Made by a program: the position numbers and the translations under genes. The notes under the pieces were generated by a model. The model was not told where the DNA came from. It did no database searches and saw only the letters and a list, made by a program, of their open reading frames with translations. DNA of 64,000 nt from Escherichia coli (lineage in GTDB: Bacteria; Pseudomonadota; Gammaproteobacteria; Enterobacterales; Enterobacteriaceae). Below, in pieces: positions 8,054 to 26,644 of the stretch. The DNA is taken from NCBI RefSeq assembly GCF_041886205.1, contig NZ_CP169029.1; one strand, written 5' to 3'. Numbering within the stretch: position 1 is the stretch's first letter; every line of letters starts with the position of its first letter.

Positions 8054-8072
8054 TTTAATCCGTTTTCTGAGC

Positions 8073-9792: not shown

Positions 9793-9822
9793 ATGATTGC
9801 TGTAATGATAATTATTTTCATT
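9793..9822 (-). promoter_or_regulatory. Fur box at the promoter of the disrupted TonB-dependent receptor
   Basis: AATGATTGCTGTAATGATAATTATTTTCATT closely matches the Fur consensus GATAATGATAATCATTATC. Confidence 0.6.
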
Positions 9823-9971
9823 TATGTTCTCATATATCTATAATTATTGTCATCTTCATAAATTGTAAATATCAAACATTTTTGACCTTAATCATGTTTT
9901 TTGATAGATATTTTACGACTGAACATATCCGTCGTTTCCTCTGACTCGTGTCAGTCGGTCTCTGGTTGTAT

Positions 9972-10010
9972 CCACGGACCGCACTCTTGACATAAGAGTG
10001 CGGTCCGTGG
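9972..10010. repeat. Perfect 17-bp inverted repeat with 5-nt loop
   Basis: CCACGGACCGCACTCTT-gacat-AAGAGTGCGGTCCGTGG; no flanking T-run on either strand. Confidence 0.9.
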
Positions 10011-11436
10011 AAAACGGAGTTGAAAAAATGGTGTCTGAAAGAAGGTACCATCATTGTGATGACAAATACTTTGGCGTGGATAATGTAATTAATTGCTGAA
10101 ATTGACCGTATATGCGGTAAGACTCATATCAGTACCAGGTCCGGTTAATTGCTGATACTAATATAAACTTTTTACAAAAGGATGAATGCAGAAGGTTACT
10201 CTAATGGCCAGAGTGATGACAATGATGGTCAGACGTTGACCTGCAGAAACTGCATTTTAATTGGTCTATAAAGTCTGCAAGAGGAATCAGGGTCAGATCA
10301 GTGAGTCTTATCGCGGCCCGAAGCTATGACTGAAAGAAGGCTGGATACAGAATTGCAACAATTTGGCAATGTCAGAACACAGAAGCTTTGCAAGCAGGTG
10401 AAAGGTTATGTCTAGCAAAAGGAGTATATCAGAATATATCTACTGATGTACAAAACACAACAATAGCTTCATGATATATAAATACGTGATGACGAGTGGT
10501 ACTCCGCATGGTTATTTAACTTCTCAGCACCACTAATGATCCTGAGCAACTTCGTATTTGGGCCATTACCATGGAGTAGAAAGCTGTGTCTGAGAATGCA
10601 GAATTTGAGAAAAGAATTCGCTTTCTTGGAGAGCTTCTGAAAATGGCACGCTAACAACGTTTTGTTAAAAAATGTGAATCACTTGCCGGGGCTGCATTTT
10701 CTATTCGAGGAGAATGTTGACGTAGATATTACAGAAATCTCAGCGCATCAGGATAAACTGCTACCTTAGGTCAACCACCAAAAGAAAATACAATACGTCC
10801 AGTTTGTATGCCTTTAATAACACATCTTCTAAATGTTGAAGAATTATCCCGCCTGCTGAAGAACGTTGCTCTGAGTGTGATAAACCTTTTTATTCTTGAT
10901 GATGTCAGCGAGAAGATGGAATATATCCCCGACTGGGTCGTGGTTACCCGGTTAAACATCTGGTGGCGCTAATAAATCTGGCAAGTCACATTCTGTTGAA
11001 TGCTGTGACAGTGCCTTACCGAGAGAGCGAAATTGTGGTGTTCTAGTGCATAGTCGCCACCATTCCGGATAATTCTATTACGTTGTTTTACAAGTTCTTT
11101 TACAGCGCAGATCTGTCGCTGACGTTGAATCAATAGCCTGGATTTCAGAACACAATGCCCGTTTGCTGGTTGTTCCGGCAGTAGCATTAATTCATTATCT
11201 GAATGAAATGTGTCAATCCACAGAAACCGCTGTCAATGACGCATTTTGTCGGACGTTAACACGAGAAAGTCTGGCTATTCCGTAATGCCATCTTATTTCG
11301 TAATGGATTGAGAATGCTGGATTTTTAATTATATTACGCGCAGTATTAATCGCGTAAATGTTTTGCGGTCAGCAACGGTGGGGGATCCATTGTTCTGTTC
11401 AATGAATACCATCATACATTTGAATCAGGAGTCGGT

Positions 11437-11982
11437 ATGATGATTTTGGTGACGGGGGGCGCACGGAGCGGGAAGAGTCGCCACGCAGAGGCGCTTATTG
11501 GGGACTCTTCACAGGTTCTGTATATCGCTACCTCGCAAATCCTTGATGATGAGATGGCTGCACGGATAGAACATCATCGGCAAGGCCGCCCGGAGCACTG
11601 GCGCACAGTGGAGCGCTGGCAACATCTTGATGAATTAATTCATGCAGACATTAACCCGAATGAGGTTGTGTTGCTTGAATGCGTTACCACAATGGTGACT
11701 AATCTGTTGTTTGATTATGGCGGCGATAAAGACCCTGATGAATGGGATTATCAGGCGATGGAACAGGCGATTAATGCTGAGATTCAGTCGTTGATTGCTG
11801 CCTGCCAACGTTGCCCCGCAAAGGTTGTATTAGTGACTAACGAAGTGGGAATGGGGATTGTGCCGGAGAGTCGTCTGGCACGACATTTTCGTGATATTGC
11901 CGGGCGGGTAAATCAGCAGTTGGCCGCTGCGGCAAATGAAGTATGGCTGGTGGTTTCGGGTATTGGAGTAAAAATCAAATGA
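11437..11982 (+). CDS. cobU: Adenosylcobinamide kinase / adenosylcobinamide-phosphate guanylyltransferase
   Basis: 181 aa, P-loop GGARSGKS; first gene of cobUST; contains a Chi sequence GCTGGTGG. Confidence 0.92.
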
Positions 11983-12722
11983 GTAAATTATTTTGGGCGA
12001 TGCTCTCATTTATTACGCGTCTGCCTGTACCGCGTCGCTGGTCCCAGGGACTGGATTTCGAGCATTATTCTCGCGGTATTATTACTTTTCCTTTGATTGG
12101 ATTATTGCTTGGCGCGATTAGCGGGCTGGTCTTCATGGTGCTGCAGGCATGGTGTGGCGCACCACTGGCGGCACTGTTTAGCGTACTTGTGCTGGTGCTG
12201 ATGACCGGGGGATTCCATCTGGACGGCCTCGCTGATACCTGTGATGGCGTATTTTCTGCACGTAGCCGCGATCGCATGTTGGAAATCATGCGTGATAGCC
12301 GTTTAGGCACCCACGGCGGTCTGGCATTGATTTTTGTGGTACTGGCAAAGATTCTGGTGTTAAGCGAGTTGGCTCTGCGTGGCGAATCGATCCTTGCATC
12401 GCTGGCGGCAGCATGTGCGGTCAGCCGCGGGACTGCCGCATTATTGATGTATCGTCATCGTTATGCGCGGGAAGAAGGGCTTGGCAATGTGTTCATTGGC
12501 AAAATTGATGGGCGACAAACCTGCGTCACACTCGGCTTAGCCGCTATTTTTGCTGCCGTATTATTGCCGGGTATGCATGGTGTGGCTGCTATGGTGGTGA
12601 CGATGGTGGCGATTTTCATCCTCGGTCAGCTTCTCAAACGTACGCTGGGCGGGCAAACGGGCGATACGCTGGGAGCAGCCATAGAGCTTGGTGAACTGGT
12701 CTTCCTGCTGGCACTGCTATAA
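11979..12722 (+). CDS. cobS: Cobalamin-5'-phosphate synthase
   Basis: 247-aa membrane protein from ATG overlapping the cobU stop (ATGA). Confidence 0.9.
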
Positions 12723-12733
12723 AGAGACGTGAG

Positions 12734-13813
12734 ATGCAAATACTTGCCGATTTACTGAATACGATCCCAGCCATCGATTCTACCGCTATGTCGCGTGCAC
12801 AACGGCATATTGACGGGTTACTCAAACCTGTTGGTAGCCTGGGAAAGCTGGAGGTGCTTGCCATACAACTGGCAGGAATGCCGGGGTTGAATGGCATACC
12901 GCATGTGGGCAAAAAAGCGGTACTGGTTATGTGTGCCGATCACGGCGTCTGGGAGGAAGGGGTCGCTATTTCTCCAAAAGAAGTGACAGCCATACAGGCT
13001 GAAAATATGACCCGTGGAACAACCGGCGTGTGTGTGCTGGCAGAACAAGCGGGCGCTAACGTCCACGTAATTGATGTTGGTATTGATACTGCTGAGCCTA
13101 TCCCCGGGCTTATCAACATGCATGTCGCACGAGGTAGCGGCAATATTGCTTCAGCTCCGGCAATGAGTCGCCGTCAGGCTGAAAAGTTGCTTTTGGACGT
13201 CATATGTTATACGCAGGAGCTGGCAAAAAACGGTGTCACGCTGTTTGGTGTAGGTGAACTGGGGATGGCAAACACGACACCGGCAGCAGCAATAGTCAGC
13301 ACAATCACTGGCCGGAATCCTGAAGAAGTGGTTGGGATTGGCGCAAACCTGCCGACAGATAAACTGGCTAATAAAATTGATGTTGTGCGTCGGGCGATTA
13401 CGTTGAATCAACCAAATCCTCAGGATGGTGTTGATGTCCTGGCAAAAGTGGGTGGATTTGATTTGGTCGGAATAGCTGGAGTGATGTTAGGTGCTGCTTC
13501 CTGCGGTTTACCCGTGTTGCTGGATGGATTTCTTTCTTATGCTGCTGCGCTCGCAGCCTGCCAGATGTCTCCTGCGATCAAACCGTATCTCATTCCTTCT
13601 CACCTGTCGGCAGAAAAAGGCGCGCGTATAGCGCTCTCGCATTTGGGGCTGGAGCCTTATCTCAATATGGAGATGCGTTTAGGTGAGGGGAGTGGCGCAG
13701 CTCTGGCGATGCCCATCATCGAAGCTGCCTGTGCGATATACAACAACATGGGCGAACTTGCTGCCAGTAATATTGTTCTACCGGGGAATACGACTTCTGA
13801 TTTGAACAGTTAA
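12734..13813 (+). CDS. cobT: Nicotinate-nucleotide--dimethylbenzimidazole phosphoribosyltransferase
   Basis: 359 aa; completes cobUST. Confidence 0.92.
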
Positions 13814-13877
13814 AAACGAAAAGTCTGATAAAAGCTATACTTAACGGATAGCTTTCGCGGCATAGGAAAGGGACATG

Positions 13878-14810
13878 ATGCGTCGTGTAAATATTCTTTG
13901 CTCATTTGCTCTGCTTTTTGCCAGCCATACTAGCCTGGCGGTAACTTATCCATTACCTCCAGAGGGTAGCCGTTTAGTGGGGCAGTCGTTTACTGTAACT
14001 GTTCCTGATCACAATACCCAGCCGCTGGAGACTTTTGCCGCACAATACGGGCAAGGGTTAAGTAACATGCTGGAAGCGAACCCGGGCGCTGATGTTTTTT
14101 TGCCGAAGTCTGGCTCGCAACTCACCATTCCGCAGCAACTGATTTTGCCCGACACTGTTCGTAAAGGGATTGTTGTTAACGTCGCTGAGATGCGTCTTTA
14201 TTACTACCCACCAGACAGTAATACTGTGGAAGTCTTTCCTATTGGTATCGGCCAGGCTGGGCGAGAAACCCCGCGTAACTGGGTGACTACCGTTGAACGT
14301 AAACAAGAAGCTCCAACCTGGACGCCAACGCCGAACACTCGGCGCGAATATGCGAAACGAGGGGAGAGTTTGCCCGCATTTGTTCCTGCGGGCCCCGATA
14401 ATCCCATGGGGCTGTACGCGATTTATATTGGCAGGTTGTATGCCATCCATGGTACCAATGCCAATTTTGGTATTGGGCTCCGGGTAAGTCAGGGCTGTAT
14501 TCGTCTGCGCAATGACGATATCAAATATCTGTTTGATAATGTTCCTGTTGGGACGCGTGTGCAAATTATCGACCAGCCAGTAAAATACACCACTGAACCA
14601 GATGGCTCGAACTGGCTGGAAGTTCATGAGCCGTTGTCGCGCAATCGTGCAGAATATGAGTCTGACCGAAAAGTGCCATTGCCGGTAACCCCATCTTTGC
14701 GGGCGTTTATCAACGGGCAAGAAGTTGATGTAAATCGCGCAAATGCTGCGTTGCAACGTCGATCGGGAATGCCTGTGCAAATTAGTTCTGGTTCAAGACA
14801 GATGTTTTAA
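13878..14810 (+). CDS. ldtA: L,D-transpeptidase LdtA (ErfK)
   Basis: Signal peptide; YkuD domain with catalytic HGT...SQGCIRL motif. Confidence 0.9.
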
Positions 14811-14833
14811 GAGCGTTGGTAATTAGAAAGCAA

Positions 14834-14860
14834 AAAGCCTGCTAGAAAGCAGGCTTTTTT
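14834..14860 (+). terminator. Rho-independent terminator after ldtA
   Basis: AGCCTGCT-agaa-AGCAGGCT followed by TTTTTT. Confidence 0.75.
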
Positions 14861-14865
14861 GAATT

Positions 14866-14941
14866 TGGCTCCTCTGACTGGACTCGAACCAGTGACATAC
14901 GGATTAACAGTCCGCCGTTCTACCGACTGAACTACAGAGGA
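14866..14941 (-). tRNA. asnV: tRNA-Asn (GUU)
   Basis: Reverse complement equals TCCTCTGTAGTTCAGTCGGTAGAACGGCGGACTGTTAATCCGTATGTCACTGGTTCGAGTCCAGTCAGAGGAGCCA. Confidence 0.95.
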
Positions 14942-14959
14942 ATCGTGTGAACGGGGCGC

Positions 14960-14988
14960 ATATTAATGGCAGTGCATGGTGATGTCAA
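14960..14988 (-). promoter_or_regulatory. Sigma70 promoter of tRNA-Asn (TTGACA-17-TAATAT)
   Basis: Consensus -35 and near-consensus -10 about 18 nt upstream of the tRNA 5' end; GC-rich discriminator. Confidence 0.55.
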
Positions 14989-15196
14989 AGGGTGAAATGC
15001 ATTTTTTTGTTTGTTTGCTGTCAATTTCAACAAAGTGGTGAGCTTTCAATCTTATTGGGTAATGAACCATCGTGGTGCATACCCTCCTTTTATAGGGCAG
15101 GGGAACGCGACAGCTGATTAAAGGAGCAAATGACGAATCTATCATAATCTCTTATTTGACAGTTGGTTAGCTTGTACATCAACACCAAAATAAAAC

Positions 15197-15212
15197 TGGC
15201 AAGCATCTTGCA
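15197..15212 (+). promoter_or_regulatory. Sigma54 (-24/-12) promoter of nac
   Basis: TGGCAAGCATCTTGCA (GG-N10-GC) about 55 nt upstream of nac; NtrC-like element ACCATCGTGGTGCAT about 130 nt further upstream. Confidence 0.6.
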
Positions 15213-15267
15213 ATCTGGTTGTAAGTAATGGCGGCACTTGGGCCGATTCTTAAAAACCGGAGGCAAC

Positions 15268-16185
15268 ATGAACTTCAGACGCCTGAAATACTTCGTAAAA
15301 ATTGTAGATATTGGTAGCCTGACCCAGGCTGCTGAAGTATTGCATATCGCACAACCAGCGCTCAGCCAGCAGGTTGCCACACTGGAAGGTGAGTTAAATC
15401 AACAACTTTTGATCCGTACAAAGCGGGGCGTTACACCAACAGACGCCGGAAAAATTCTCTATACCCATGCGCGGGCCATTTTACGTCAGTGTGAACAGGC
15501 CCAACTGGCGGTGCATAACGTTGGTCAGGCATTATCGGGGCAAGTCTCGATTGGCTTTGCACCAGGAACCGCTGCGTCATCCATCACCATGCCCTTATTA
15601 CAGGCGGTTCGCGCTGAATTTCCGGAGATCGTTATCTATCTTCATGAAAATAGTGGTGCAGTGCTTAACGAAAAATTGATAAATCACCAACTCGATATGG
15701 CGGTGATTTATGAGCATTCCCCTGTGGCTGGTGTATCCAGTCAGGCTTTGCTGAAAGAAGATCTTTTTCTGGTAGGAACTCAAGATTGCCCGGGGCAAAG
15801 CGTTGATGTGAATGCTATTGCGCAAATGAACCTCTTTCTCCCCAGTGATTACAGTGCTATTAGACTTCGTGTTGATGAGGCTTTTTCCCTACGGCGACTC
15901 ACGGCAAAAGTTATTGGTGAAATTGAGTCTATTGCCACGCTTACCGCAGCGATTGCCAGCGGCATGGGCGTTGCAGTATTACCCGAATCGGCCGCGCGTT
16001 CGTTATGTGGCGCAGTAAATGGGTGGATGTCACGCATTACCACTCCTTCCATGAGTCTCTCTTTGTCATTAAATTTACCCGCCAGAGCGAACTTATCGCC
16101 ACAGGCACAGGCAGTGAAAGAGTTGTTAATGTCAGTGATTAGTTCTCCAGTGATGGAAAAAAGGCAGTGGCAATTGGTGAGCTAA
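15268..16185 (+). CDS. nac: Nitrogen assimilation control protein Nac (LysR family)
   Basis: 305 aa from MNFRRLKYFVKIVDIGSLTQAAEVLHIAQPALSQQV; sigma54 promoter upstream. Confidence 0.9.
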   Translation: MNFRRLKYFVKIVDIGSLTQAAEVLHIAQPALSQQVATLEGELNQQLLIRTKRGVTPTDAGKILYTHARAILRQCEQAQLAVHNVGQALSGQVSIGFAPGTAASSITMPLLQAVRAEFPEIVIYLHENSGAVLNEKLINHQLDMAVIYEHSPVAGVSSQALLKEDLFLVGTQDCPGQSVDVNAIAQMNLFLPSDYSAIRLRVDEAFSLRRLTAKVIGEIESIATLTAAIASGMGVAVLPESAARSLCGAVNGWMSRITTPSMSLSLSLNLPARANLSPQAQAVKELLMSVISSPVMEKRQWQLVS

Positions 16186-16286
16186 GTGTTATATCGGGAT
16201 GGAATAAGATGCGGGTTTTTATTATTTGTTATGCCGGGCATTAGACTTTAACAATAACGGGAAATCTGAACTGCCCGGAGTTTACC

Positions 16287-17237
16287 GTGAATTTCCAACA
16301 ACTAAAGATAATCCGCGAGGCTGCACGTCAGGATTACAACCTGACAGAGGTTGCGAATATGCTTTTTACCTCACAGTCAGGCGTCAGCCGTCATATTCGG
16401 GAACTGGAGGATGAACTTGGCATCGAAATATTTGTTCGACGAGGTAAGCGACTGCTGGGCATGACTGAACCGGGCAAAGCATTACTGGTCATTGCAGAAC
16501 GTATTCTGAATGAAGCCAGTAATGTTCGTCGGCTTGCAGACCTGTTTACCAACGATACGTCTGGCGTTCTCACTATTGCAACGACGCATACTCAGGCACG
16601 TTATAGCTTGCCAGAGGTCATTAAAGCTTTTCGCGAACTTTTCCCGGAGGTTCGGCTCGAGCTAATCCAGGGGACGCCACAGGAAATTGCGACATTGTTG
16701 CAAAATGGCGAAGCTGATATTGGTATCGCCAGCGAGCGTTTGAGTAATGACCCGCAGCTCGTCGCCTTCCCGTGGTTTCGTTGGCACCATAGTTTGCTTG
16801 TTCCACACGATCATCCCTTGACGCAAATTTCACCATTGACGCTGGAATCAATAGCGAAGTGGCCGTTAATCACTTACCGACAGGGGATTACGGGGCGCTC
16901 ACGTATTGATGACGCATTTGCCCGCAAAGGTTTGCTGGCAGATATTGTATTAAGTGCGCAGGATTCTGATGTCATTAAAACCTATGTTGCTCTTGGGCTT
17001 GGGATCGGATTAGTTGCCGAGCAATCCAGTGGCGAACAAGAGGAAGAGAATTTAATCCGCCTGGATACGCGGCATCTTTTTGATGCTAATACTGTCTGGT
17101 TGGGACTGAAGCGAGGACAACTTCAGCGTAACTATGTCTGGCGCTTTCTGGAACTTTGTAATGCAGGACTGTCAGTTGAGGATATCAAGCGGCAGGTGAT
17201 GGAAAGCAGTGAAGAGGGAATTGATTATCAGATATAG
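16287..17237 (+). CDS. cbl: LysR-family regulator Cbl (sulfonate utilisation)
   Basis: 316 aa LysR-type protein (MNFQQLKIIREAARQDYNLTEVANMLFTSQSGVSRHIRELE...) immediately after nac. Confidence 0.9.
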   Translation: MNFQQLKIIREAARQDYNLTEVANMLFTSQSGVSRHIRELEDELGIEIFVRRGKRLLGMTEPGKALLVIAERILNEASNVRRLADLFTNDTSGVLTIATTHTQARYSLPEVIKAFRELFPEVRLELIQGTPQEIATLLQNGEADIGIASERLSNDPQLVAFPWFRWHHSLLVPHDHPLTQISPLTLESIAKWPLITYRQGITGRSRIDDAFARKGLLADIVLSAQDSDVIKTYVALGLGIGLVAEQSSGEQEEENLIRLDTRHLFDANTVWLGLKRGQLQRNYVWRFLELCNAGLSVEDIKRQVMESSEEGIDYQI

Positions 17238-17242
17238 CAAAA

Positions 17243-17267
17243 ATCCCGCTATAAAAGCGGGCTTTTC
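17243..17267 (+). terminator. Rho-independent terminator after cbl
   Basis: CCCGCT-ataaa-AGCGGG followed by CTTTTC. Confidence 0.6.
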
Positions 17268-17274
17268 AGGAATT

Positions 17275-17350
17275 TGGCTCCTCTGACTGGACTCGAACCA
17301 GTGACATACGGATTAACAGTCCGCCGTTCTACCGACTGAACTACAGAGGA
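17275..17350 (-). tRNA. asnU: tRNA-Asn (GUU)
   Basis: Sequence identical to the other three tRNA-Asn copies. Confidence 0.95.
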
Positions 17351-17366
17351 ATCGTTGTTGAGGCAC

Positions 17367-17394
17367 ATCTTAACGGCGAAAAATCTTTTGTCAA
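17367..17394 (-). promoter_or_regulatory. Sigma70 promoter of tRNA-Asn (TTGACA-16-TAAGAT)
   Basis: Same architecture as the other asn promoters; lies inside the 5' extension of the yeeO track ORF. Confidence 0.5.
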
Positions 17395-17510
17395 ACCCGA
17401 TTTATAAATTCCCCTACTGTTTGCCGTTTCTATCAACAGTTTGTTGCATTTGCAGACAATTTGTTGGCGAAAATCTTTGCAGCTTTGCTGATTCTCCCTC
17501 ATTATTTGAA

Positions 17511-18998
17511 ATGTGGTTTCACTTTCTGCAATTAAGGTCGGCTTTGAATATCTCCTCTGCTTTACGCCAGGTTGTTCACGGCACTCGCTGGCACGCTAAA
17601 CGCAAGAGCTACAAAGTGTTGTTCTGGCGCGAGATAACCCCGCTTGCTGTTCCTATCTTCATGGAGAATGCCTGTGTCCTGTTGATGGGGGTTCTGAGCA
17701 CTTTTCTGGTCAGCTGGCTGGGAAAAGATGCGATGGCCGGCGTGGGATTGGCGGACAGCTTCAATATGGTCATTATGGCTTTTTTTGCTGCTATCGATCT
17801 TGGTACTACTGTCGTTGTGGCATTTAGTCTCGGTAAGCGGGATCGACGACGAGCGAGGGTGGCGACGCGGCAGTCATTGGTGATCATGACGTTGTTTGCC
17901 GTACTGTTGGCAACGCTTATTCATCATTTTGGCGAACAAATTATTGATTTCGTCGCGGGTGATGCCACGACAGAAGTTAAAGCACTGGCGTTGACTTATC
18001 TGGAGCTGACGGTACTCAGTTATCCAGCAGCTGCCATCACTCTTATTGGTAGCGGGGCACTTCGTGGTGCAGGGAATACGAAAATACCGCTATTGATTAA
18101 CGGTAGCCTGAATATTCTTAATATTATTATTAGCGGCATATTGATTTACGGCCTTTTCTCCTGGCCGGGACTGGAATTTGTCGGGGCAGGGCTGGGTTTA
18201 ACCATTTCTCGTTATATTGGCGCAGTTGCAATTTTGTGGGTGCTGGCGATTGGTTTTAATCCTGCGCTAAGGATTTCGTTAAAGAGCTATTTTAAACCGC
18301 TGAATTTTAGCATTATCTGGGAAGTCATGGGGATTGGTATTCCCGCGAGTGTCGAATCAGTGTTATTTACCAGTGGTCGGTTATTAACCCAAATGTTCGT
18401 TGCCGGGATGGGGACCAGTGTTATTGCCGGAAATTTTATCGCGTTTTCAATTGCGGCTCTTATCAACTTACCCGGAAGTGCGCTCGGCTCTGCTTCTACG
18501 ATCATTACAGGCCGAAGGTTGGGGGTAGGGCAGATAGCGCAAGCAGAGATTCAGTTGCGGCATGTGTTCTGGCTTTCCACTCTTGGATTAACGGCCATCG
18601 CCTGGCTAACGGCTCCCTTTGCCGGGGTTATGGCATCGTTTTACACCCAGGATCCACAGGTTAAACATGTCGTTGTGATTCTGATTTGGCTAAATGCTTT
18701 ATTTATGCCTATTTGGTCCGCCTCATGGGTGCTACCCGCTGGATTTAAAGGTGCTCGTGATGCCCGTTACGCCATGTGGGTTTCGATGTTGAGCATGTGG
18801 GGTTGTCGGGTTGTAGTCGGTTATGTGCTGGGAATCATGCTTGGCTGGGGTGTGGTTGGTGTCTGGATGGGAATGTTTGCCGACTGGGCTGTGCGGGCCG
18901 TGCTGTTTTACTGGCGAATGGTTACTGGACGTTGGCTATGGAAATACCCTCGACCCGAGCCGCAAAAGTGTGAAAAAAAGCCAGTTGTGTCGGAATAA
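17511..18998 (+). CDS. yeeO: MATE-family efflux transporter YeeO
   Basis: Track ORF is 547 aa; proposed start at internal ATG (MWFHFLQ...) gives about 495 aa and avoids the asnU promoter; 12-TMS MATE topology. Confidence 0.8.
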   Translation: MWFHFLQLRSALNISSALRQVVHGTRWHAKRKSYKVLFWREITPLAVPIFMENACVLLMGVLSTFLVSWLGKDAMAGVGLADSFNMVIMAFFAAIDLGTTVVVAFSLGKRDRRRARVATRQSLVIMTLFAVLLATLIHHFGEQIIDFVAGDATTEVKALALTYLELTVLSYPAAAITLIGSGALRGAGNTKIPLLINGSLNILNIIISGILIYGLFSWPGLEFVGAGLGLTISRYIGAVAILWVLAIGFNPALRISLKSYFKPLNFSIIWEVMGIGIPASVESVLFTSGRLLTQMFVAGMGTSVIAGNFIAFSIAALINLPGSALGSASTIITGRRLGVGQIAQAEIQLRHVFWLSTLGLTAIAWLTAPFAGVMASFYTQDPQVKHVVVILIWLNALFMPIWSASWVLPAGFKGARDARYAMWVSMLSMWGCRVVVGYVLGIMLGWGVVGVWMGMFADWAVRAVLFYWRMVTGRWLWKYPRPEPQKCEKKPVVSE

Positions 18999-19051
18999 AC
19001 GACAAAATGCAGATTATTTCAGCAAACGATTTCAAATTTAAAAAACAGGCT

Positions 19052-19080
19052 TTGACATTGTGGGTGGGCATCGCTAATAT
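19052..19080 (+). promoter_or_regulatory. Sigma70 promoter of tRNA-Asn (TTGACA-17-TAATAT)
   Basis: CTTTGACATTGTGGGTGGGCATCGCTAATAT, 18 nt upstream of the tRNA. Confidence 0.6.
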
Positions 19081-19098
19081 TCGCCTCGTTCTCACGAT

Positions 19099-19174
19099 TC
19101 CTCTGTAGTTCAGTCGGTAGAACGGCGGACTGTTAATCCGTATGTCACTGGTTCGAGTCCAGTCAGAGGAGCCA
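19099..19174 (+). tRNA. asnW: tRNA-Asn (GUU)
   Basis: 76-nt tRNA-Asn sequence ending ...GAGGAGCCA. Confidence 0.95.
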
Positions 19175-19235
19175 AATTTTAGTTTTGAGACATCTCTATG
19201 AGTCTCAAAACAGTTAAAAAATAAAAATTATTTTT

Positions 19236-19271
19236 ACCCGGTTACCTTGTAAAAAAGTGACCGGGTTTTTT
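19236..19271 (+). terminator. Terminator candidate downstream of tRNA-Asn
   Basis: ACCCGGT...ACCGGGT stem followed by TTTTTT; an additional 10-bp hairpin lies at 19184-19213. Confidence 0.5.
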
Positions 19272-19626
19272 GATTTCTGTGTTTCGTGCGCTTAATCGAG
19301 TCTCACGCTTCAGTGAGCAAATTGTCCCTCCCCAACAGACATCACGATTCGCAAGGTCAAAAACTCTGTTCCATGAAGTACCGTACAAAGATAAAGAGAA
19401 AAATGCCTTATGCGGGATGTCGCTATCGCGTCTTTATCGGGAAACTATGCGTAATTGCCACTTTGCCTTCTGTAATCAGAAAAAGAAGAACTGGAATTTT
19501 AATAAATATTATTTCTCTGGGAACGGGGGGGTATAATCAATATGACGAGTTGAATATTATATTTTTTATAAGAATTATATGAGATTAAAGAAATCTGCCG
19601 TAAAGACAGATTTCTTTAAAAGATAA

Positions 19627-20343
19627 TTAGAGATTTGCGACGTTATGATAAACTTTTTGTACATCGTCGTCATCTTCAAGGGCATCAACAAGCCCTTCAA
19701 AGATTTCTAAATCTTCTGGGGAAAGCTCAACTTCAGATTGAGCAATCATTTCTAATTCTGTTGTTGAGAACTCAGTGATTCCAGCTGCTTTTAGAGCCGC
19801 GATTCCTTTATGAAGGTCAGTAGGTTCAGTATAAATAACAATGTTACCTTCTTCTTCAGTCACATCACGAACATCAACTTCAGCTTCAAGTAAAATTTCA
19901 AAAATATGGTCAGGGTCTGTCCCTTTAAATACAATCACACCCGTATTGTCAAACATATAGCTGACAGAACCTGCCGCTCCGATATTGCCGCCTTTTTTAT
20001 TGAAAATTGTGCGAACGTTAGCAATCGTACGGTTAACATTTGAAGTCAATGTCTCGGCGATAATCATTGAGCCATTAGGACCAAAGCCTTCATAACGTCC
20101 CTGCACGAACGTTTCATCTCCGCCGCCTTTGGCTTTATCAATTGCTTTATCAATAACGTGCTTTGGAACTTGTGCCTGCTTTGCACGTTCAATAACGAAT
20201 TTTAAAGATGTGTTTAATTCTGGATCGGGTTCACCTTGTTTAGCAGCAGCATAGATTTCTACACCGAATTTTGCATAAATTTTAGACGTTGCACCGTCTT
20301 TAGCCGTTTTTTTAGCAACAATATTGGCCCATTTACGTCCCAC
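19627..20343 (-). CDS. yeeN: YebC/PmpR-family transcriptional regulator YeeN
   Basis: 238 aa beginning [27 protein letters not shown]... Confidence 0.9.
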
Positions 20344-20685
20344 TGGAATGATCTCCTCGAAAATTTATTTACATTACTGGTAAATCGTTAACATGTGTTA
20401 ATTCAGCATATTATATCATAACAGGAAAAATCTCGTCTATTAGAAATAAAAATATTCTAAAGCCATAATCTTATATTTAATTTTATAAAAACTTATATTG
20501 TTGGCGGGATTTTTTATAATTGTGTTTTGAAAGCATACTTGCTTTTAATATGTGGAAATCATTAAGACGATAATAAAACTCGTATCCGCCCAAGGAAGCA
20601 AACAGCCCACGATTATTGCAGGCTATTTGCCAGGTGTCTTACTTACTCCTTCACATCTATTTCTGATAAGAAGGTTCAGAACTTA

Positions 20686-22140
20686 TTATCGGAACGGCGG
20701 CTCATTAAAGGTTCGTAATTTACGCGAATGCAGTCGGTCGCCTTCTGCGCGCAGCAAATCGATCGCCCGAATGCCAATTTGCAGATGTTCGGAAATAGCG
20801 CCTTCATAAAAACGGTTAGCCTGGCCGGGAAGTTTAATCTCGCCATGCAACGGTTTATCTGAAACACACAGTAGTGTCCCGTATGGCACGCGGAAACGAT
20901 ATCCTTGCGCGGCAATGGTTGCACTTTCCATATCAATTGCTACGGCCCGGCTTAAGTTAAAACGAAGTGCAGAAGCTGAGTAACGTAATTCCCAGTTCCT
21001 GTCATCTGTGGTTACCACAGTACCAGTACGTAGCCGCTGTTTGACTTCCTCACCGGGCCTGCCGCTCACCAGCTTGGTGGCGTCATAAAGCGCACGTTGC
21101 ACTTCAGCAATGCTCGGAATAGGAATATCGGGCGGCAGAACCGCATCAAGAACGTGGTCATCGCGTAAATAAGCGTGTGCAAGTACATAATCGCCAATGG
21201 CCTGACTTTCACGTAATCCGCCACAGTGACCAATCATCAACCAGACATCCGGGCGTAGCACTGCCAGATGATCGCAGATGGTTTTAGCATTTGACGGTCC
21301 CACGCCAATATTCACCAGAGTAATACCCTGACCATCGGCGGTAATTAAATGCCATGCTGGCATCTGATGTTTTTTCCATGCAAGGTCGGAAATGGCTTCT
21401 TCTGGCGCTTCGGTTTCGGCGGTGATCCAGTTCCCGCCAGCACAAGAAAGGGCAATGTAGGGACTATCAGGATCGAGGATCTGGCTGCATCCCCAACGAA
21501 CGAATTCATCCACATAACGTGTGTAGTTGGTAAACAAGACGAACGGCTGAAAATGTTCAACTGGCGTACCGGTATAATGGCGCAACCGTGCGAGGGAAAA
21601 ATCGACGCGGCGCGCATCAAAATGCGATAGCGGGGAGAATTCAGTTGGATGATAAATGCCGTCTGCAGTTTCATCGCCAATTTGCGCCAGTTCTGTTGTC
21701 GGGAAGTAGCGAGTTAACCCAGCGCTCATTGAGCGATCAAGTGTCAATTCAGAGCCATCGATGACATAAGGATAAGGGATTTCATGCTGCGAGGGTTGCA
21801 CTGAGATATGCGCACCATAATCCTGATACAGCAACGTAAGTTGTTCATTAAGATACGAACGAAAGAGAGTAGGGCGAGTAATCGTGGTGGTGTAGCTGCC
21901 TGCGTGGGTAAAGCGACCAAATGCGCGCGTTTTGGGGGGATTGGTTGTGCTACCGTCCCAGGTTACGGTCAGTGATGGATAGACAAAAAGACCTTGTTTG
22001 CGGGCGTTTTCATCAGGTAATTCGCCACTTGTAATATAGTTGCCAATGGCGTTGCGTAATGCGACTACAGATTGCTCATACAGCGCGTCGAGTTTATCCA
22101 GTGCCTGAGCTGGGGTCAGGCCGGAGCCCTTATTATTCAT
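20686..22140 (-). CDS. amn: AMP nucleosidase
   Basis: 484 aa from internal ATG (MNNKGSGLTPAQALDKLDALYEQ...); the track ORF's 52-codon extension overlaps shiA. Confidence 0.9.
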   Translation of the reverse strand: MNNKGSGLTPAQALDKLDALYEQSVVALRNAIGNYITSGELPDENARKQGLFVYPSLTVTWDGSTTNPPKTRAFGRFTHAGSYTTTITRPTLFRSYLNEQLTLLYQDYGAHISVQPSQHEIPYPYVIDGSELTLDRSMSAGLTRYFPTTELAQIGDETADGIYHPTEFSPLSHFDARRVDFSLARLRHYTGTPVEHFQPFVLFTNYTRYVDEFVRWGCSQILDPDSPYIALSCAGGNWITAETEAPEEAISDLAWKKHQMPAWHLITADGQGITLVNIGVGPSNAKTICDHLAVLRPDVWLMIGHCGGLRESQAIGDYVLAHAYLRDDHVLDAVLPPDIPIPSIAEVQRALYDATKLVSGRPGEEVKQRLRTGTVVTTDDRNWELRYSASALRFNLSRAVAIDMESATIAAQGYRFRVPYGTLLCVSDKPLHGEIKLPGQANRFYEGAISEHLQIGIRAIDLLRAEGDRLHSRKLRTFNEPPFR

Positions 22141-22241
22141 GTGTGTCTCCTGTTCCATACAATTACCGCACATCCGATAGTATGTCACAGAAATGTGAAA
22201 CAAAAGTGTAAGGCGAAGATCGGATGATCTTCGCCAGGCTA

Positions 22242-23558
22242 TCAAGCGCGTTGACTGTCTTTCATCAACAAAGCGGTCATTGCGGAAATCAGGCATCCAG
22301 CCAGCAAATAAATGGCGACGCTATGCCAGTTCCCGGCAAAGTAAGTGATGAGTGCAGCGGCAATAAAAGGTGTAAATCCACCGCCAACCACACTGGCAAC
22401 CTGATAACCGACTCCAGCGCCACTATAGCGATAACTGGCACCAAACATTTCGGTAAACATCGGTTGTTGCACACACACCACCATGTCATGCGCAATGTTT
22501 GCCAGCATTATGGAGAAGAAAACTATCCAGAAAATAGATTGTGCTTCAAGCGCCATAAAGAAAGGAAATGCGCTCAACGTTCCGATTAACGTACCTGTGA
22601 TATAAACCCTACGGCGACCAAAACGATCGGCAAGCCAGGCAAAACAGGGAATTGTCAGGCAGCTTAATCCACCTACCAGCAAACCAATATTAAGGAAAAG
22701 TTCGCGCGGTAGCCCCATATTCTGGGTTGAATAATTAAGTGCAAAGGCAGTAACGATGTACATCGTCAGCAATTCGCACAGTCGTAGCGCAATAATCTTC
22801 AGGAAAGCACCGGGATGTCGTAACAGCGCTTCGATAACCGGGATGCGTTTTTTCGCGGCAGCTTGATAATGTTGCTGTTGTTCAAATTCCGCGGACTCCT
22901 CCATGCCATTGCGCACCCACAATGCTCCCAGTACCAGTACGATGCTAAACAGGAAAGGAATGCGCCAGCCCCAGCTTAAAAACTGTTCGTCAGTCGTCAT
23001 CATACTGATCAATGAAACCAGTCCGGTTGAAAGCAGTAAACCTACACCGTAGCCAACTTGTACACCGCTACTGTAAAAGGCTTTTTTATTTTTCGGTGCA
23101 CTTTCAACGGAAAGCAACGCCGCGCCTCCCCATTCGCCGCCGACTGCAAATCCCTGAATGGCACGCAGTGTCACCAGCAAAATAGGTGCCCACCACCCAA
23201 TGGTCGAGAATGAAGGAAGAATACCAATCAAGGCTGTCGCGATGCCCATCATCCAGACGGTCAGCATTAACATGCGCTTACGTCCCAGTCGGTCGCCAAA
23301 GTGACCGAAAATGACACCGCCGAGCGGACGGAAAAGAAATCCGACGCCAAAGGTAGCAAATGCGGCGAGCGTTCCCATCGCCGGGCTTACTTGCGGGAAA
23401 AACTCGCGATTAAACACCAGTGCGGCGGTGATGCCATAGAGTAAAAAATCATACCAGTCGACGACGGCACCAGCGAAGCTGCCTAACGCAGCTCGTCGGG
23501 CGCGACTTAACGAAAGCGTCCCTTCATCGGGACGAGTGGAGATGAGCGTGGAGTCCAT
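22242..23558 (-). CDS. shiA: Shikimate:H+ symporter ShiA (MFS)
   Basis: 438-aa MFS transporter (MDSTLISTRPDEGTLSLSRARRAALGSFAGAVVDWYDFLLYG...). Confidence 0.9.
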   Translation of the reverse strand: MDSTLISTRPDEGTLSLSRARRAALGSFAGAVVDWYDFLLYGITAALVFNREFFPQVSPAMGTLAAFATFGVGFLFRPLGGVIFGHFGDRLGRKRMLMLTVWMMGIATALIGILPSFSTIGWWAPILLVTLRAIQGFAVGGEWGGAALLSVESAPKNKKAFYSSGVQVGYGVGLLLSTGLVSLISMMTTDEQFLSWGWRIPFLFSIVLVLGALWVRNGMEESAEFEQQQHYQAAAKKRIPVIEALLRHPGAFLKIIALRLCELLTMYIVTAFALNYSTQNMGLPRELFLNIGLLVGGLSCLTIPCFAWLADRFGRRRVYITGTLIGTLSAFPFFMALEAQSIFWIVFFSIMLANIAHDMVVCVQQPMFTEMFGASYRYSGAGVGYQVASVVGGGFTPFIAAALITYFAGNWHSVAIYLLAGCLISAMTALLMKDSQRA

Positions 23559-23872
23559 AATGATCCTGTTTGTACTGTCTTTTTATAATTAGTATGGAAA
23601 AGGTAACTCACATTGCCGTCGATCTATAAACGAACCTTATGAGACTACCTCGACAGAGCGCATCTGCAAATGATTTTATGGCTGATTAGCGGCAACATGA
23701 AAAATTCGATGGAAGATGAAAGCGCAGGAGTTGCTGGTGTTGTTTAAGGATTAAGCAGAGGACCCACAGGTTAGAGATATGAAACATAAAAGTCCGCATA
23801 TGCACAAAATGGCACCCTGATGAGTCTGATAGACTGCATTGCATTATAACCAGTAGGGAGGCGAGGTTAGGT

Positions 23873-23945
23873 ATGTTTTTAGCATCATTGTTGAGACGTA
23901 TTGCATTTAGTTACTACGATTATAAAGCTTATAATTTCAATATTG
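23873..23945 (+). pseudogene. yeeL: yeeL N-terminal 24 codons, separated from the rest by the IS66-family insertion
   Basis: ATG at 23873 with upstream AGGGAGG; frame continues across the 8-bp target duplication into the glycosyltransferase ORF at 26645. Confidence 0.5.
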
Positions 23946-23998
23946 GTAACCGGCTCATTTAAACCGTCTGGTCTGTTTCCTCCGGCTCTACAAAAATA

Positions 23999-24676
23999 AT
24001 GTCCATCATTTTTAATGGACACTATCGTATGAAACACCGGACCTGGATCACTGAAGCTTTACGTCTTCACTTTGAAGAACATTTACCCCGGGTTGTGGCC
24101 GGGCGTCGCCTGGGTGTACCAAAATCAACAGTTTGTAGTATGTTCGTGCGCTTTCGGAGAGCTGGCCTTTCGTGGCCTTTGCCCGCAGGCATGTCGGAGC
24201 AGGAACTTGATGCCTGCCTTTACGGACAATTTTCCACGGTACCAGTCGTACGTCCTGAAAGCACCGTTATATCCGAAGCCCCCGTGGTAAAAAAACGTCC
24301 CCGGCGGCCCAACTTCCCTTATGAGTTTAAAATCGCCTTAGTGGAGCAGTCACTGCAGCCCGGAGCCTGTGTGGCGCAGATCGCCCGGGAAAACGGAATC
24401 AACGATAACCTGCTCTTCAACTGGCGCCATCAATACCGGAAAGGTGGCCTGCTGCCTTCCGGAAAAAATATGCCGGCACTGCTTCCCGTGACGTTAACGC
24501 CGGAGCCGGATAATAAAATCCCGGCCCCCGCACAGGAACCAGAGCAGATAAATACACCGTCCGACAGTCTGTGTTGTGAGCTGGTTCTGCCGGCCGGAAC
24601 TCTCAGGCTTAAAGGTAAACTGACGCCGGCGTTATTACAGACACTTATCCGCGAAATAAAAGGGAGCAGCCACTGA
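23999..24676 (+). CDS. IS66-family accessory protein (TnpA-like, HTH); start codon uncertain
   Basis: C-terminal half ...GACVAQIARENGINDNLLFNWRHQYRKG... resembles IS66 Orf1; stop overlaps the next start (ATGA). Confidence 0.7.
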   Translation: MSIIFNGHYRMKHRTWITEALRLHFEEHLPRVVAGRRLGVPKSTVCSMFVRFRRAGLSWPLPAGMSEQELDACLYGQFSTVPVVRPESTVISEAPVVKKRPRRPNFPYEFKIALVEQSLQPGACVAQIARENGINDNLLFNWRHQYRKGGLLPSGKNMPALLPVTLTPEPDNKIPAPAQEPEQINTPSDSLCCELVLPAGTLRLKGKLTPALLQTLIREIKGSSH

Positions 24677-25023
24677 TGATATCTCTCCCTGCAGGTTCGC
24701 GTATCTGGCTGGTTGCAGGTATCACCGATATGCGAAATGGCTTTAACGGCCTGGCATCAAAAGTTCAGAACGTCCTGAAGGATGACCCGTTCTCCGGACA
24801 CCTGTTCATCTTCCGCGGACGCCGGGGTGACCAGATAAAAGTGTTGTGGGCTGACAGTGACGGACTGTGCCTCTTCACCAAACGCCTGGAGCGGGGCCGC
24901 TTCGTCTGGCCAGTCACCCGTGACGGCAAGGTGCACCTTACTCCGGCTCAGTTATCCATGCTTCTTGAAGGTATCAACTGGAAGCACCCGAAACGAACGG
25001 AACGCGCTGGAATCCGCATATAA
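24676..25023 (+). CDS. tnpB: IS66-family TnpB
   Basis: 115 aa: MISLPAGSRIWLVAGITDMRNGFNGLASKVQNVL... Confidence 0.85.
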   Translation: MISLPAGSRIWLVAGITDMRNGFNGLASKVQNVLKDDPFSGHLFIFRGRRGDQIKVLWADSDGLCLFTKRLERGRFVWPVTRDGKVHLTPAQLSMLLEGINWKHPKRTERAGIRI

Positions 25024-25042
25024 CCCGTTGTAAAGTGAGGAT

Positions 25043-26614
25043 ATGGACACCTCACTTGCTCATGAGAACGCCCGCCTGCGGGCACTGTTGCAGACGCAAC
25101 AGGACACCATCCGCCAGATGGCTGAATACAACCGCCTGCTCTCACAGCGGGTGGCGGCTTATGCTTCCGAAATCAACCGGCTGAAGGCGCTGGTTGCGAA
25201 ACTGCAACGTATGCAGTTCGGTAAAAGCTCAGAAAAACTTCGTGCAAAAACCGAACGGCAGATACAGGAAGCACAGGAGCGAATCAGCGCACTTCAGGAA
25301 GAAATGGCGGAAACGCTGGGTGAGCAATATGACCCGGTACTGCCATCCGCCCTGCGCCAGTCTTCAGCCCGTAAACCGTTACCGGCCTCACTTCCCCGTG
25401 AAACCCGGGTTATCCGGCCGGAAGAGGAATGCTGTCCTGCCTGTGGTGGTGAACTCAGTTCTCTGGGATGTGATGTGTCAGAGCAACTGGAGCTTATCAG
25501 CAGCGCCTTTAAGGTTATCGAAACACAACGTCCGAAACAGGCCTGTTGCCGGTGCGACCATATCGTGCAGGCACCAGTACCTTCAAAACCCATTGCACGC
25601 AGTTATGCCGGAGCGGGGCTTCTGGCCCATGTTGTCACCGGGAAATATGCAGACCATCTGCCGTTATACCGCCAGTCAGAAATATACCGTCGTCAGGGAG
25701 TGGAGCTGAGCCGTGCCACACTGGGGCGCTGGACAGGTGCTGTTGCTGAACTGCTGGAGCCGCTGTATGACGTCCTGCGCCAGTATGTGCTGATGCCCGG
25801 TAAAGTCCATGCTGATGATATCCCCGTCCCGGTCCAGGAGCCGGGCAGCGGTAAAACCCGGACAGCCCGGCTGTGGGTCTACGTCCGTGATGACCGTAAC
25901 GCCGGTTCACAGATGCCCCCGGCGGTCTGGTTCGCGTACAGTCCGGACCGGAAAGGTATCCATCCACAAAATCACCTGGCCGGTTACAGCGGTGTGCTTC
26001 AGGCCGATGCTTACGGTGGTTACCGGGCGTTATACGAATCCGGCAGAATAACGGAAGCCGCGTGTATGGCTCATGCCCGGAGAAAAATCCACGATGTGCA
26101 TGCAAGAGCGTCCACCTACATCACCACGGAAGCCCTGCAGCGTATCGGTGAACTGTATGCCATCGAGGCAGAGGTCCGGGGCTGTTCAGCAGAACAGCGT
26201 CTGGCGGCAAGAAAAGCCAGAGCCGCGCCACTGATGCAGTCACTGTATGACTGGATACAGCAACAGATGAAAACACTGTCGCGTCACTCAGATACGGCAA
26301 AAGCGTTCGCATACCTGCTGAAACAGTGGGATGCACTGAACGTGTACTGCAGTAATGGCTGGGTGGAAATCGACAACAACATCGCAGAGAACGCCTTACG
26401 GGGAGTGGCCGTAGGCCGGAAAAACTGGATGTTCGCGGGTTCCGACAGCGGTGGTGAACATGCGGCGGTGTTGTACTCGCTGATCGGCACATGCCGTCTG
26501 AACAATGTGGAGCCAGAAAAGTGGCTGCGTTACGTCATTGAACATATCCAGGACTGGCCGGCAAACCGGGTACGCGATCTGTTGCCCTGGAAAGTTGATC
26601 TGAGCTCTCAGTAA
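25043..26614 (+). CDS. IS66-family transposase TnpC
   Basis: 523 aa with leucine-zipper N-terminus, CxxC zinc-finger motifs and DDE core; C-terminus [16 protein letters not shown]. Confidence 0.9.
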
Positions 26615-26644
26615 ATATCAATACGGTTCTGACGAGTCGCTTAC

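Follow-up and report, generated by a model that had tools for sequence, protein, structure and literature searches.

A non-coding control region shared with the tRNA-Asn gene asnU probably underlies the annotated 5' end of Escherichia coli yeeO

Mis-annotation of start codons through choice of the longest open reading frame is a classic problem, and many starts in E. coli K-12 were revised between 2006 and 2014 (PMC4909307). The yeeO gene resembles such cases: the longest frame with a Shine-Dalgarno (SD)-like sequence was chosen, the resulting extension has no homologs and overlaps the regulatory DNA of a neighbour, and relatives are annotated with a shorter protein. It differs from them in that two annotations (547 and 495 aa) compete while a third start (TTG, 484 aa) is favoured here, and in that a tRNA acceptor end, read in antisense, supplies the fortuitous SD. 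The promoter of that tRNA gene, asnU, is built like the sigma-70 promoters of stable RNAs (tRNA/rRNA), a class subject to stringent and growth-rate control, with a near-consensus -35 element, a 16-nt spacer, a G+C-rich discriminator, a short leader and an A/T-rich tract above the -35 element, a design common to the four asn genes. Ahead of yeeO lies a palindrome of the form published for KdgR/PlaR (IclR-family) operators of the pectin/hexuronate regulon at kdgT, kdgK, kduID, eda and yiaK-plaR, placed over the -10 element and +1 as expected for a repressor; the targets of that regulon are sugar-acid catabolic genes, whereas yeeO encodes a MATE exporter of flavin and toxic metabolites. The YeeO protein is an equivalog-level match to the EmmdR/YeeO MATE transporters (NCBIfam NF007562; EmmdR of Enterobacter cloacae), scoring 906 bits against a cutoff of 465, with two MatE stretches (194 bits). 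The 484-aa form shows no differences from this family, and its cytoplasmic N-terminus of ~28 aa falls in the range of solved MATE transporters (13–36 residues before the TM1 motif, compared with 91, 39 and 28 in the 547-, 495- and 484-aa models), whereas the 547-aa form adds 63 residues that lack a counterpart.

In the window, the 64,000-nt stretch of E. coli DNA analysed here, asnU, encoding tRNA-Asn(GUU), occupies 17275–17350 on the minus strand (ARAGORN; Rfam tRNA 72.6 bits). A terminator scan placed its intrinsic terminator, a hairpin (CCCGCTTTTATAGCGGG) with a T-run after it, at 17245–17261 on the minus strand; the same hairpin also lies directly past the cbl stop on the plus strand. The open reading frame list gives yeeO on the plus strand from TTG 17355 to 18998 (547 aa), and this TTG (17355–17357) is also the start of the K-12 model, b1985 of NC_000913.3 (1644 nt/547 aa); a yeeO length of 1644 nt is likewise listed for U00096.2 (PMC3415461). 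PGAP instead gives 495 aa in other strains, from the in-frame ATG 17511. The annotation conflict is thus real. The original prediction that the 547-codon frame starts next to the 5' end of tRNA-Asn was confirmed, with a gap of 4 nt between the two. A 53-aa minus-strand frame (17341–17502) reaches into the tRNA, and we took it to be spurious. We put at about 80% the probability that 17351–17543 is a non-coding divergent control region containing the yeeO promoter and an operator, and that YeeO is translated from TTG 17544 as a protein of 484 aa.

A consensus scan of 17150–17750 returned a single sigma-70-like site, on the minus strand, with the arrangement TTGACA-16 nt-TAAGAT (10/12 matches). 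Its -35 hexamer lies at 17389–17394 and its -10 hexamer at 17367–17372, both past 17355 and therefore inside the 547-codon frame, as had been predicted. When the four tRNA-Asn genes of the window were aligned upstream, all had an invariant TTGACA, TAAnAT, a G+C-rich discriminator and a short leader in identical register, and because the same elements recur in this way in all four we assigned the site to asnU. The TTGACA is invariant in the four paralogous promoters and in 53 species, and the hexamers, the 16-nt spacing and the leader-compatible position of the asnU site are those of a sigma-70 promoter conserved across these species. Asn pre-tRNA leaders measure 6–8 nt (PMC7049720 Table 1), and the asnU 5' leader would occupy 17351–17358 with transcription expected to start at 17356–17358. 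An A/T-rich tract at 17397–17417 on the minus strand, about -40 to -60 of asnU, may be an UP element; tracts were likewise placed in asnV, asnW and asnT. These three genes have TAATAT as the -10 hexamer rather than TAAGAT, and the asnU leader region is 2 nt shorter. Under a 547-aa reading of yeeO, the asnU promoter DNA would double as coding sequence.

The extension was examined in a comparison set of 53 orthologous yeeO loci, each with the same divergent tRNA-Asn neighbour. The 547 frame was open to its start in 11 of the 53 loci and closed by stops or frameshifts in the other 42; the closed loci include closely related Citrobacter, E. albertii and Salmonella, and the frame is broken in most genera. 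The K-12 RefSeq model, in which TTG 17355 initiates a 547-aa YeeO and the transcript arises from within asnU antisense or by cbl read-through, gains from the frame being open, at equal length, in Escherichia and six Citrobacter species. However, 6.7% of dinucleotide shuffles of 17355–17543 were open across all 63 codons, and the openness of the frame is not beyond chance. Substitutions between the window and one Citrobacter locus (L011) were distributed over the three codon positions as 11/10/14 in the extension and 70/22/254 in the gene body, with amino acid identities of 65% and 87%, respectively (chi-square p = 2.8e-6), and an Escherichia locus (L003) gave the same contrast (p = 1.2e-8). 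Amino acid identity in the extension (60–65%) was not above nucleotide identity (74–78%). Per-column variability by codon position was 0.24/0.22/0.22 for 17355–17510 and 0.27/0.21/0.21 for 17511–17543, changing to 0.17/0.11/0.34 after 17544 and to 0.05/0.02/0.39 from TM1 on, and 3-periodic conservation begins exactly at 17544. Family profiles give a similar boundary: the match to NF007562 begins at residue 67 of the 547-aa form, in which TTG 17544 is residue 64, and those to PDB homologs and Pfam MatE at residues 92 and 100, respectively, while residues 1–63 are covered by no model or homolog from NCBIfam, Pfam or the PDB.

The remaining evidence for initiation at TTG 17355 comes from its surroundings. 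An SD-like GAGGA 5 nt upstream pairs at -6.0 kcal/mol, but this motif is the complement (antisense) of the invariant tRNA-Asn 5' end, and an 11-bp hairpin (-13.1 kcal/mol, z = -3.0) encloses the TTG in its 5' arm. Kim et al. (2012) reported an E. coli 5' end at 2057895(-), window position 17330, which is 25 nt above the 547 start; however, it comprised 7 reads where the mean was 108, it maps to the antisense strand of a tRNA that is extremely abundant, no promoter-like sequence precedes it, and that study assigned transcription start sites (TSSs) solely upstream of annotated starts. A transcript of this kind would also run head-on into the asnU promoter. The comparative data largely refute the 547-aa model, which we consider extremely improbable. 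Judged from these comparisons, residues 1–63 would not be coding, and 17351–17543 would be a control region shared by yeeO and asnU. That the frame is open in Escherichia and some Citrobacter would be a chance event, and it was presumably picked in annotation because it is the longest and is preceded by the fortuitous SD. The original prediction had called the 547-codon model a start-codon annotation problem, and the broken frame in 42 of 53 loci and substitutions without codon bias bear this out.

We then considered the position at which coding would begin. Neither the 547 start nor ATG 17511 is conserved among the 53 orthologous loci. The codon at 17544–17546 is TTG in 54/54 loci, whereas adjacent Leu codons vary freely, and among all 80 loci TTG is found at this position in 69 and one codon upstream in nine more. 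Ortholog alignment and pairing energy identified an SD-like AAGG at 17534–17537 on the plus strand, 6 nt ahead of the TTG; its AGG is kept in 48 of 54 loci and displaced by 1 nt in the others. The pairing energy is -5.9 kcal/mol, as against +0.4 kcal/mol at ATG 17511, a modest SD in that ~9% of random positions pair equally well, and in the predicted 5' UTR the SD and TTG are unpaired only ~35–47%. A lineage labelled E. coli (L007) carries a TAA in place of CAA 17529, between ATG 17511 and TTG 17544, and its gene body is under purifying selection (21/6/132). The TTG is already the annotated start in E. albertii, Pluralibacter and one NCBI E. coli cluster (P0003). Other downstream starts were rejected as unconserved: GTG at codon -3 (18/54), TTG at codon -2 (9/54) and ATG at codon -16 (3/54). 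Conservation, periodicity and family profiles together suggest that YeeO translation most likely starts at the conserved TTG 17544, giving a 484-aa MATE transporter encoded by 17544–18998 on the plus strand, and we infer that this start is used in E. coli. The TetRP and TRAINSPOTTER supplements contained no yeeO initiation or TSS entry for E. coli, and the Cappable-seq supplements no coordinates for the region.

Ortholog conservation also points to a yeeO promoter upstream of this start. The proposed -35 element, TTGCAG at 17477–17482 on the plus strand, is essentially invariant across species, and the proposed -10 element, CATTAT at 17500–17505 on the same strand, is conserved as CATnAT; the 17-nt spacer between them is constant in length and variable in sequence. 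TTGCAG has 3/6 consensus matches and was missed by the consensus scan. In S. Typhimurium 4/74, dRNA-seq gave a single yeeO TSS, 2093547(-), which falls on the third base of the ATG annotated at 2093549 (PMC4643027 supplement) and 158 nt downstream of the position equivalent to the 547 start. The -10 element fits this TSS geometrically: the S. enterica sequence reads TTGCAG-17 nt-CATTAT-6 nt-G(+1), as for a sigma-70 promoter. For E. coli, the conserved blocks around a variable spacer of fixed length suggest a sigma-70 yeeO promoter, with transcription probably starting at ~17511–17513. A TTGAAA at 17506–17511 was rejected as the -35 element, since no acceptable -10 lies at 16–18 nt and the SD would precede the start. 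The Kim 2012 files held no Klebsiella TSS for KPN_02447, and the yeeO/asnU locus is unmentioned in the RpoD SELEX paper. An Rfam scan of 17200–17700 (E <= 1) recovered the tRNA alone; the 5' region of yeeO matched no riboswitch or leader family.

Over the yeeO -10 element and +1, at 17504–17524, lies a palindromic operator of the KdgR/PlaR type, ATtTGAAATgtgGTTTCAcTT, identified by conservation and by its match to the published box. It fits the published PlaR box ATnTGAAACnnnGTTCAnTT, is the sole such site in the window, and compared with ATnTGAAACnnnGTT(T)CAnTT has one half-site mismatch (T for C). The operator recurs with at most one mismatch and at a fixed distance from TTG 17544 in 62 of 80 loci. 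The yeeO/asnU spacer was among the two strongest PlaR peaks in genomic SELEX, with binding in vitro (PMC6958661), and yeeO is a predicted member of the KdgR regulon (Rodionov 2004, as cited in PMC6127512). KdgR is predicted to bind at this operator, through which yeeO would be repressed in vivo. In the literature on the regulon we found no report of yeeO derepression in kdgR or plaR mutants.

The ATG at 17511–17513 on the plus strand, from which PGAP starts the 495-aa protein, lies inside this operator and at the expected yeeO TSS. An internal ATG had been put forward in the original prediction as the remedy for the overlong frame, and by the PGAP model E. coli initiates here from a TSS slightly upstream, or leaderless, with TTG 17544 as Leu-12. 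As a start codon ATG is stronger than TTG, both PGAP and the Salmonella annotation use this ATG, and it is usable in 22 of 53 loci, namely all E. coli-clade loci, most Citrobacter, S. enterica, Kluyvera and Klebsiella. The stretch from the -10 element to the ATG is one T longer in E. coli than in Salmonella, which makes a start at A17511, and hence a leaderless AUG mRNA, geometrically possible. However, the ATG is without SD pairing, the Salmonella TSS falls on the third base of its equivalent, and in 31 of 53 loci, including E. albertii and the E. coli-labelled lineage, it is absent, in another frame or closed off by a stop downstream. The next 11 codons show the flat variability given above for 17511–17543 and 45% amino acid identity to Citrobacter. 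As the operator half-site TGAAAT-G includes the ATG, this codon would be kept at the DNA level whatever the frame. This remedy is probably wrong, and we regard initiation at ATG 17511 in place of TTG 17544 as unlikely. We likewise consider it unlikely that a leaderless AUG 17511 is used beside TTG 17544 in E. coli, giving two YeeO isoforms.

With TTG 17544 as the start, the region would operate as follows. On the minus strand, the asnU promoter with its G+C-rich discriminator would direct transcription from ~17356–17358, giving a leader of 6–8 nt. On the plus strand, a weak sigma-70-type promoter would start yeeO transcription at ~17511–17513, and an IclR-family repressor on 17504–17524 would cover the -10 element and +1 and block RNA polymerase. 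The yeeO mRNA would have a leader of ~31 nt with the AAGG SD, followed by TTG 17544 and translation of the 484-aa transporter.

The two core promoters do not overlap; they stand back-to-back with ~82–83 bp between the -35 boxes and ~155 bp between the start sites, and nothing in these data indicates the interference between yeeO and asnU that had been raised as a possibility. A related proposal is that the divergent promoters are coupled, with the strong growth-rate-controlled asnU promoter modulating yeeO, or yeeO modulating asnU, by way of common upstream sites or transcription-induced supercoiling. The tRNA 5' end and the YeeO TM1 motif are 273–275 nt apart in 45 of 53 species and 268–278 nt apart in 52 of 53, the DNA between the -35 boxes is more conserved than third codon positions (variability 0.30 vs 0.375), and an RpoS-holoenzyme SELEX peak lies at ~17493, all of which would fit coupling. 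However, the core elements are separate, with 82 bp between the -35 hexamers, and the block of yeeO promoter, operator and TTG is equally conserved where the tRNA neighbour is missing (Buttiauxella, Chimaeribacter and Enterobacillus). We found no expression data on coupling in the literature and consider it quite unlikely. It is compatible with the control region and TTG start favoured here rather than an alternative to them, and if true would tie YeeO export to translational demand.

The yeeO start is an ordinary annotation problem whose components were already known, and its value is practical rather than conceptual. The K-12 reference labels as coding 189 bases of regulatory DNA that contain the promoters of both the tRNA gene and yeeO, together with a repressor site for which binding has been observed experimentally. 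Binding peaks and start sites mapped here are consequently classed as intragenic or internal (PMC5493296, PMC4643027) or mis-assigned (PMC3415461), and clones built on the 547- or 495-aa models would add 63 or 11 non-native residues to the YeeO N-terminus. With the start moved to TTG 17544, the E. coli annotation would agree with that of E. albertii and other genera. If the whole frame of the 1644-nt model were deleted, the asnU -10 and -35 elements and the operator would be lost too, and one of the four tRNA-Asn genes would probably fall silent.

The gene order in the window is that of the nac-cbl-asnU-yeeO-asnW region of E. coli, and positions 8750-23945 are 99.9% identical to MG1655 (MG1655 coordinate = 2077201 minus window coordinate). 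ARAGORN placed the tRNA-Asn(GUU) gene asnU at 17275-17350 on the minus strand, and the mechanical ORF list gave a plus-strand yeeO frame of 547 aa from a TTG (17355..18998), so that 4 bases lie between the tRNA 5' end and the frame, a gap of the size given in the original prediction. The same 547-aa form is annotated for b1985 yeeO in the RefSeq record NC_000913.3 (2058203..2059846, NP_416491.3), and PGAP-annotated strains carry yeeO from ATG 17511 (495 aa, WP_001323172.1). The conflict between the start annotations is real and still current. In strain EC21GDE043 (L001 1-538, NZ_CP099721.1), the annotation treats cbl, which has an internal stop, as a pseudogene, and an IS1A insertion splits yeeO in strain BUCT2930 (H1, NZ_CP059723.1).

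The coding status of the extension (17355-17543) was analyzed in the yeeO loci of 80 species, each represented by one genome; 53 of these loci have a divergent upstream tRNA-Asn at nearly the same distance. The frame was open back to the 547-aa start in only 11 of these 53 (Escherichia clades, six Citrobacter and Klebsiella), and stops or frameshifts closed it in 42, including sister Citrobacter species, E. albertii and Salmonella. Between the window and a Citrobacter locus with an open frame (L011), changes at codon positions 1/2/3 numbered 11/10/14 in the extension, where 65% of the amino acids are identical, and 70/22/254 in the gene body, where 87% are (chi-square p=2.8e-6); for Escherichia locus L003 the counts were 6/4/1 in the extension and 18/8/138 in the gene body (p=1.2e-8). 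Column variability per codon position was flat in 17355-17510 (0.24/0.22/0.22) and 17511-17543 (0.27/0.21/0.21) and became 3-periodic only after 17544 (0.17/0.11/0.34, then 0.05/0.02/0.39). Dinucleotide shuffling of this T-rich segment left all 63 codons open in 6.7% of cases, so no special cause has to be invoked for the open frame. No profile or homologue covers the extension: the YeeO/EmmdR equivalog NCBIfam NF007562 matches from residue 67, the PDB homologues from 92 and Pfam MatE from 100. The Shine-Dalgarno (SD) sequence before TTG 17355 (GAGGA, -6.0 kcal/mol) is merely the complement of the tRNA 5' end, and this TTG is located in an 11-bp hairpin (-13.1 kcal/mol, z=-3.0). Judged by these comparisons, the extension is non-coding, and the start-codon annotation problem raised by the original prediction is confirmed by the broken frame in 42 of the 53 loci and the non-coding-like substitutions.

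The sole datum fitting the 547-aa model is a 5' end reported by Kim et al. 2012 (PMC3415461) at U00096.2 position 2057895, minus strand in K-12; in window coordinates this is 17330, which precedes TTG 17355 by 25 nt. Only 7 reads support this end, the mean being 108; it is antisense to the tRNA, within that gene, and no promoter-like sequence precedes it. TSSs in that study were assigned only upstream of annotated starts, and a true TSS at ~17512 could therefore not have been assigned to yeeO. The 17330 end is probably noise that stems from an abundant RNA, the tRNA, together with the overlong gene model, and the 547-aa form of YeeO is almost certainly wrong. The 11-bp inverted repeat (17352-17379) spans the asnU leader and -10 region and, as plus-strand RNA, gives a hairpin followed by AAAAAUCUUUU; such a structure could halt or structure transcripts running antisense through asnU towards yeeO.

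The asnU promoter lies within the long yeeO frame, as had been proposed. A consensus scan of 17150-17750 revealed a single sigma-70-like site, on the minus strand, with TTGACA at 17394-17389, a 16-nt spacer and TAAGAT at 17372-17367. The window has four tRNA-Asn genes, asnV (14866-14941), asnU (17275-17350), asnW (19099-19174) and asnT (35284-35359), and alignment of their upstream regions showed an invariant TTGACA, TAAnAT, a G+C-rich discriminator and a short leader, all in register, and the asnU promoter blocks are the best conserved part of the interval in the 53 species (variability 0.12). Published Asn pre-tRNA leaders are 6-8 nt long (PMC7049720 Table 1), which would place the asnU start at 17356-17358, overlapping the proposed TTG at 17355-17357. 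The similarity upstream of asnV, asnU and asnW reaches past the core promoter (e.g., CAGCAAAC and TGTTGA), consistent with duplicated promoter-plus-upstream modules, and two tRNA-Asn genes bracket yeeO in many genera. Of the 9 differences from MG1655 in 12.9 kb, two (17404 and 17415) are located in the 156-nt extension; relative to asnU they occupy promoter positions of about -46 and -57, in an A/T-rich UP-like zone, and both would be non-synonymous if the long frame were read (F->Y, N->Y).

We further examined ATG 17511, the internal start favored by the original prediction, with the loci right-aligned on the TM1 motif WREITPLAVP. Only 22 of 53 loci had the ATG in frame with open sequence behind it; it was followed by a stop in 9 (e.g., TAA at the CAA codon in the E. 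coli-labelled lineage L007), out of frame in 17 owing to a 1-nt indel further downstream, and missing in 5. No SD pairing was detected at this codon (+0.4 kcal/mol). Its conservation at the DNA level is explained by its position inside ATtTGAAATgtgGTTTCAcTT (17504-17524), an operator-like sequence matching the published PlaR box ATnTGAAACnnnGTTCAnTT, which, according to its authors, resembles the KdgR box (PMC6958661). This is the only PlaR-box-type site within the 64-kb window, and 62 of 80 loci, including those of genera without the tRNA neighbor, have it with no more than one mismatch and at an unchanged distance from the coding region. The yeeO/asnU spacer is among the two strongest PlaR genomic-SELEX peaks (PMC6958661), and comparative genomics had earlier placed yeeO in the predicted KdgR regulon (Rodionov et al. 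2004, as cited in PMC6127512). Usable in 22 loci only, lacking an SD and lying inside an operator, ATG 17511 is probably not the yeeO start either.

Cross-species conservation also outlined a putative plus-strand yeeO promoter, with near-invariant -35 (TTGCAG, 17477-17482) and -10 (CATnAT, 17500-17505) blocks separated by 17 nt of constant length and freely variable sequence, the signature of a promoter spacer. The frame-shifting indels between species all fall at 17525-17533, within the would-be 5' UTR. For S. Typhimurium 4/74 the evidence is direct: the dRNA-seq TSS table of PMC4643027 contains a single yeeO TSS, minus-strand position 2093547, which it classes as 'Internal' to SL1990 (2092092..2093549). 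This position corresponds to base three, the G, of the ATG annotated as start. In S. enterica the order is TTGCAG-17 nt-CATTAT-6 nt-G(+1), and AAGG and TTG come 31 nt later. By conservation, E. coli transcription would be expected from 17511-17513; the operator at 17504-17524 would then extend over the -10 and +1, the usual repressor arrangement. An RpoS-holoenzyme SELEX peak 'inside yeeO' at 2057732 (PMC5493296) would map to ~17493 if given in U00096.2 numbering, at a resolution too low to separate the two promoters. Under the 495-aa model, it is possible that the E. coli transcript starts on A17511 and yields a leaderless AUG, as E. coli has one T more after the -10 than Salmonella; we found no E. 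coli TSS or initiation data for yeeO, a poorly expressed gene.

The codon at 17544-17546 is TTG in 54 of 54 aligned loci, among nearby Leu codons that vary (TTA, CTN, TTG). It is preceded at 6 nt by AGG in 48 of them and 1 nt off in the remainder, and its SD pairing is -5.9 kcal/mol. No other conserved start-capable codon lies between it and TM1 in these loci. In the full set, TTG is present in 69 of 80 loci and one codon upstream in 9 more (Pantoea, Pectobacterium and Edaphovirga). The resulting 484-aa protein has 28 residues before the TM1 motif, within the 13-36 of solved MATE transporters, and this TTG is already the annotated start in E. albertii (P0022, MNISAALRH...), Pluralibacter (P0115) and one NCBI E. 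coli cluster (P0003, MNISSALRQ...). We put the probability that TTG 17544, not ATG 17511, is the main yeeO start in E. coli at roughly 0.8. All elements at yeeO/asnU belong to known types, and most have been described before; the addition made here is that the 547- and 495-aa models now in use for E. coli are probably both wrong, with TTG 17544 (484 aa) as the probable conserved start. For U00096.2, yeeO is listed as 1644 nt (PMC3415461); a whole-ORF deletion on this model (17358-18977) would remove the asnU promoter and the KdgR/PlaR operator, and an expression clone would add 63 non-native residues. The rare TTG start is kept across Enterobacterales, out to Pantoea and Pectobacterium (including loci L070-L081), which suggests selection for weak translation initiation of the YeeO exporter.

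On the promoter INTERFERENCE question, the asnU and yeeO core promoters do not overlap: they stand back to back, with -35 hexamers 82 bp and start sites ~155 bp apart. The yeeO promoter/operator/TTG block is equally conserved in loci without the tRNA, and the suggested interference between the two promoters is unsupported. The divergent region (17351-17625; loci L003-L069) is 273-275 nt long in 45 of 53 species and 268-278 nt in 52, a near-fixed length despite ~25% nucleotide divergence across genera, and the part between the two -35 boxes is more conserved than third codon positions (variability 0.30 vs 0.375). This constancy and conservation leave room for promoter coupling.

Relative to MG1655 the window is a mosaic, with the 99.9%-identical segment and one of 98.3% identity (26645-64000) separated by 23945-26645; the first 8.7 kb (1-8750) could not be matched to the corresponding segment of K-12, and the window lacks IS5H at ~11045 (11043-11046). 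At 18175 the MG1655 base G is replaced by A in the window, so that codon 211 of YeeO (484-aa numbering), within the motif PGLGFVGAG, specifies Glu instead of Gly. The variant was in no complete E. coli genome searched (best identity over 17200-19200, 99.8%), and the affected Gly is present in every homologue inspected; 18175 A may be a damaging private YeeO allele.
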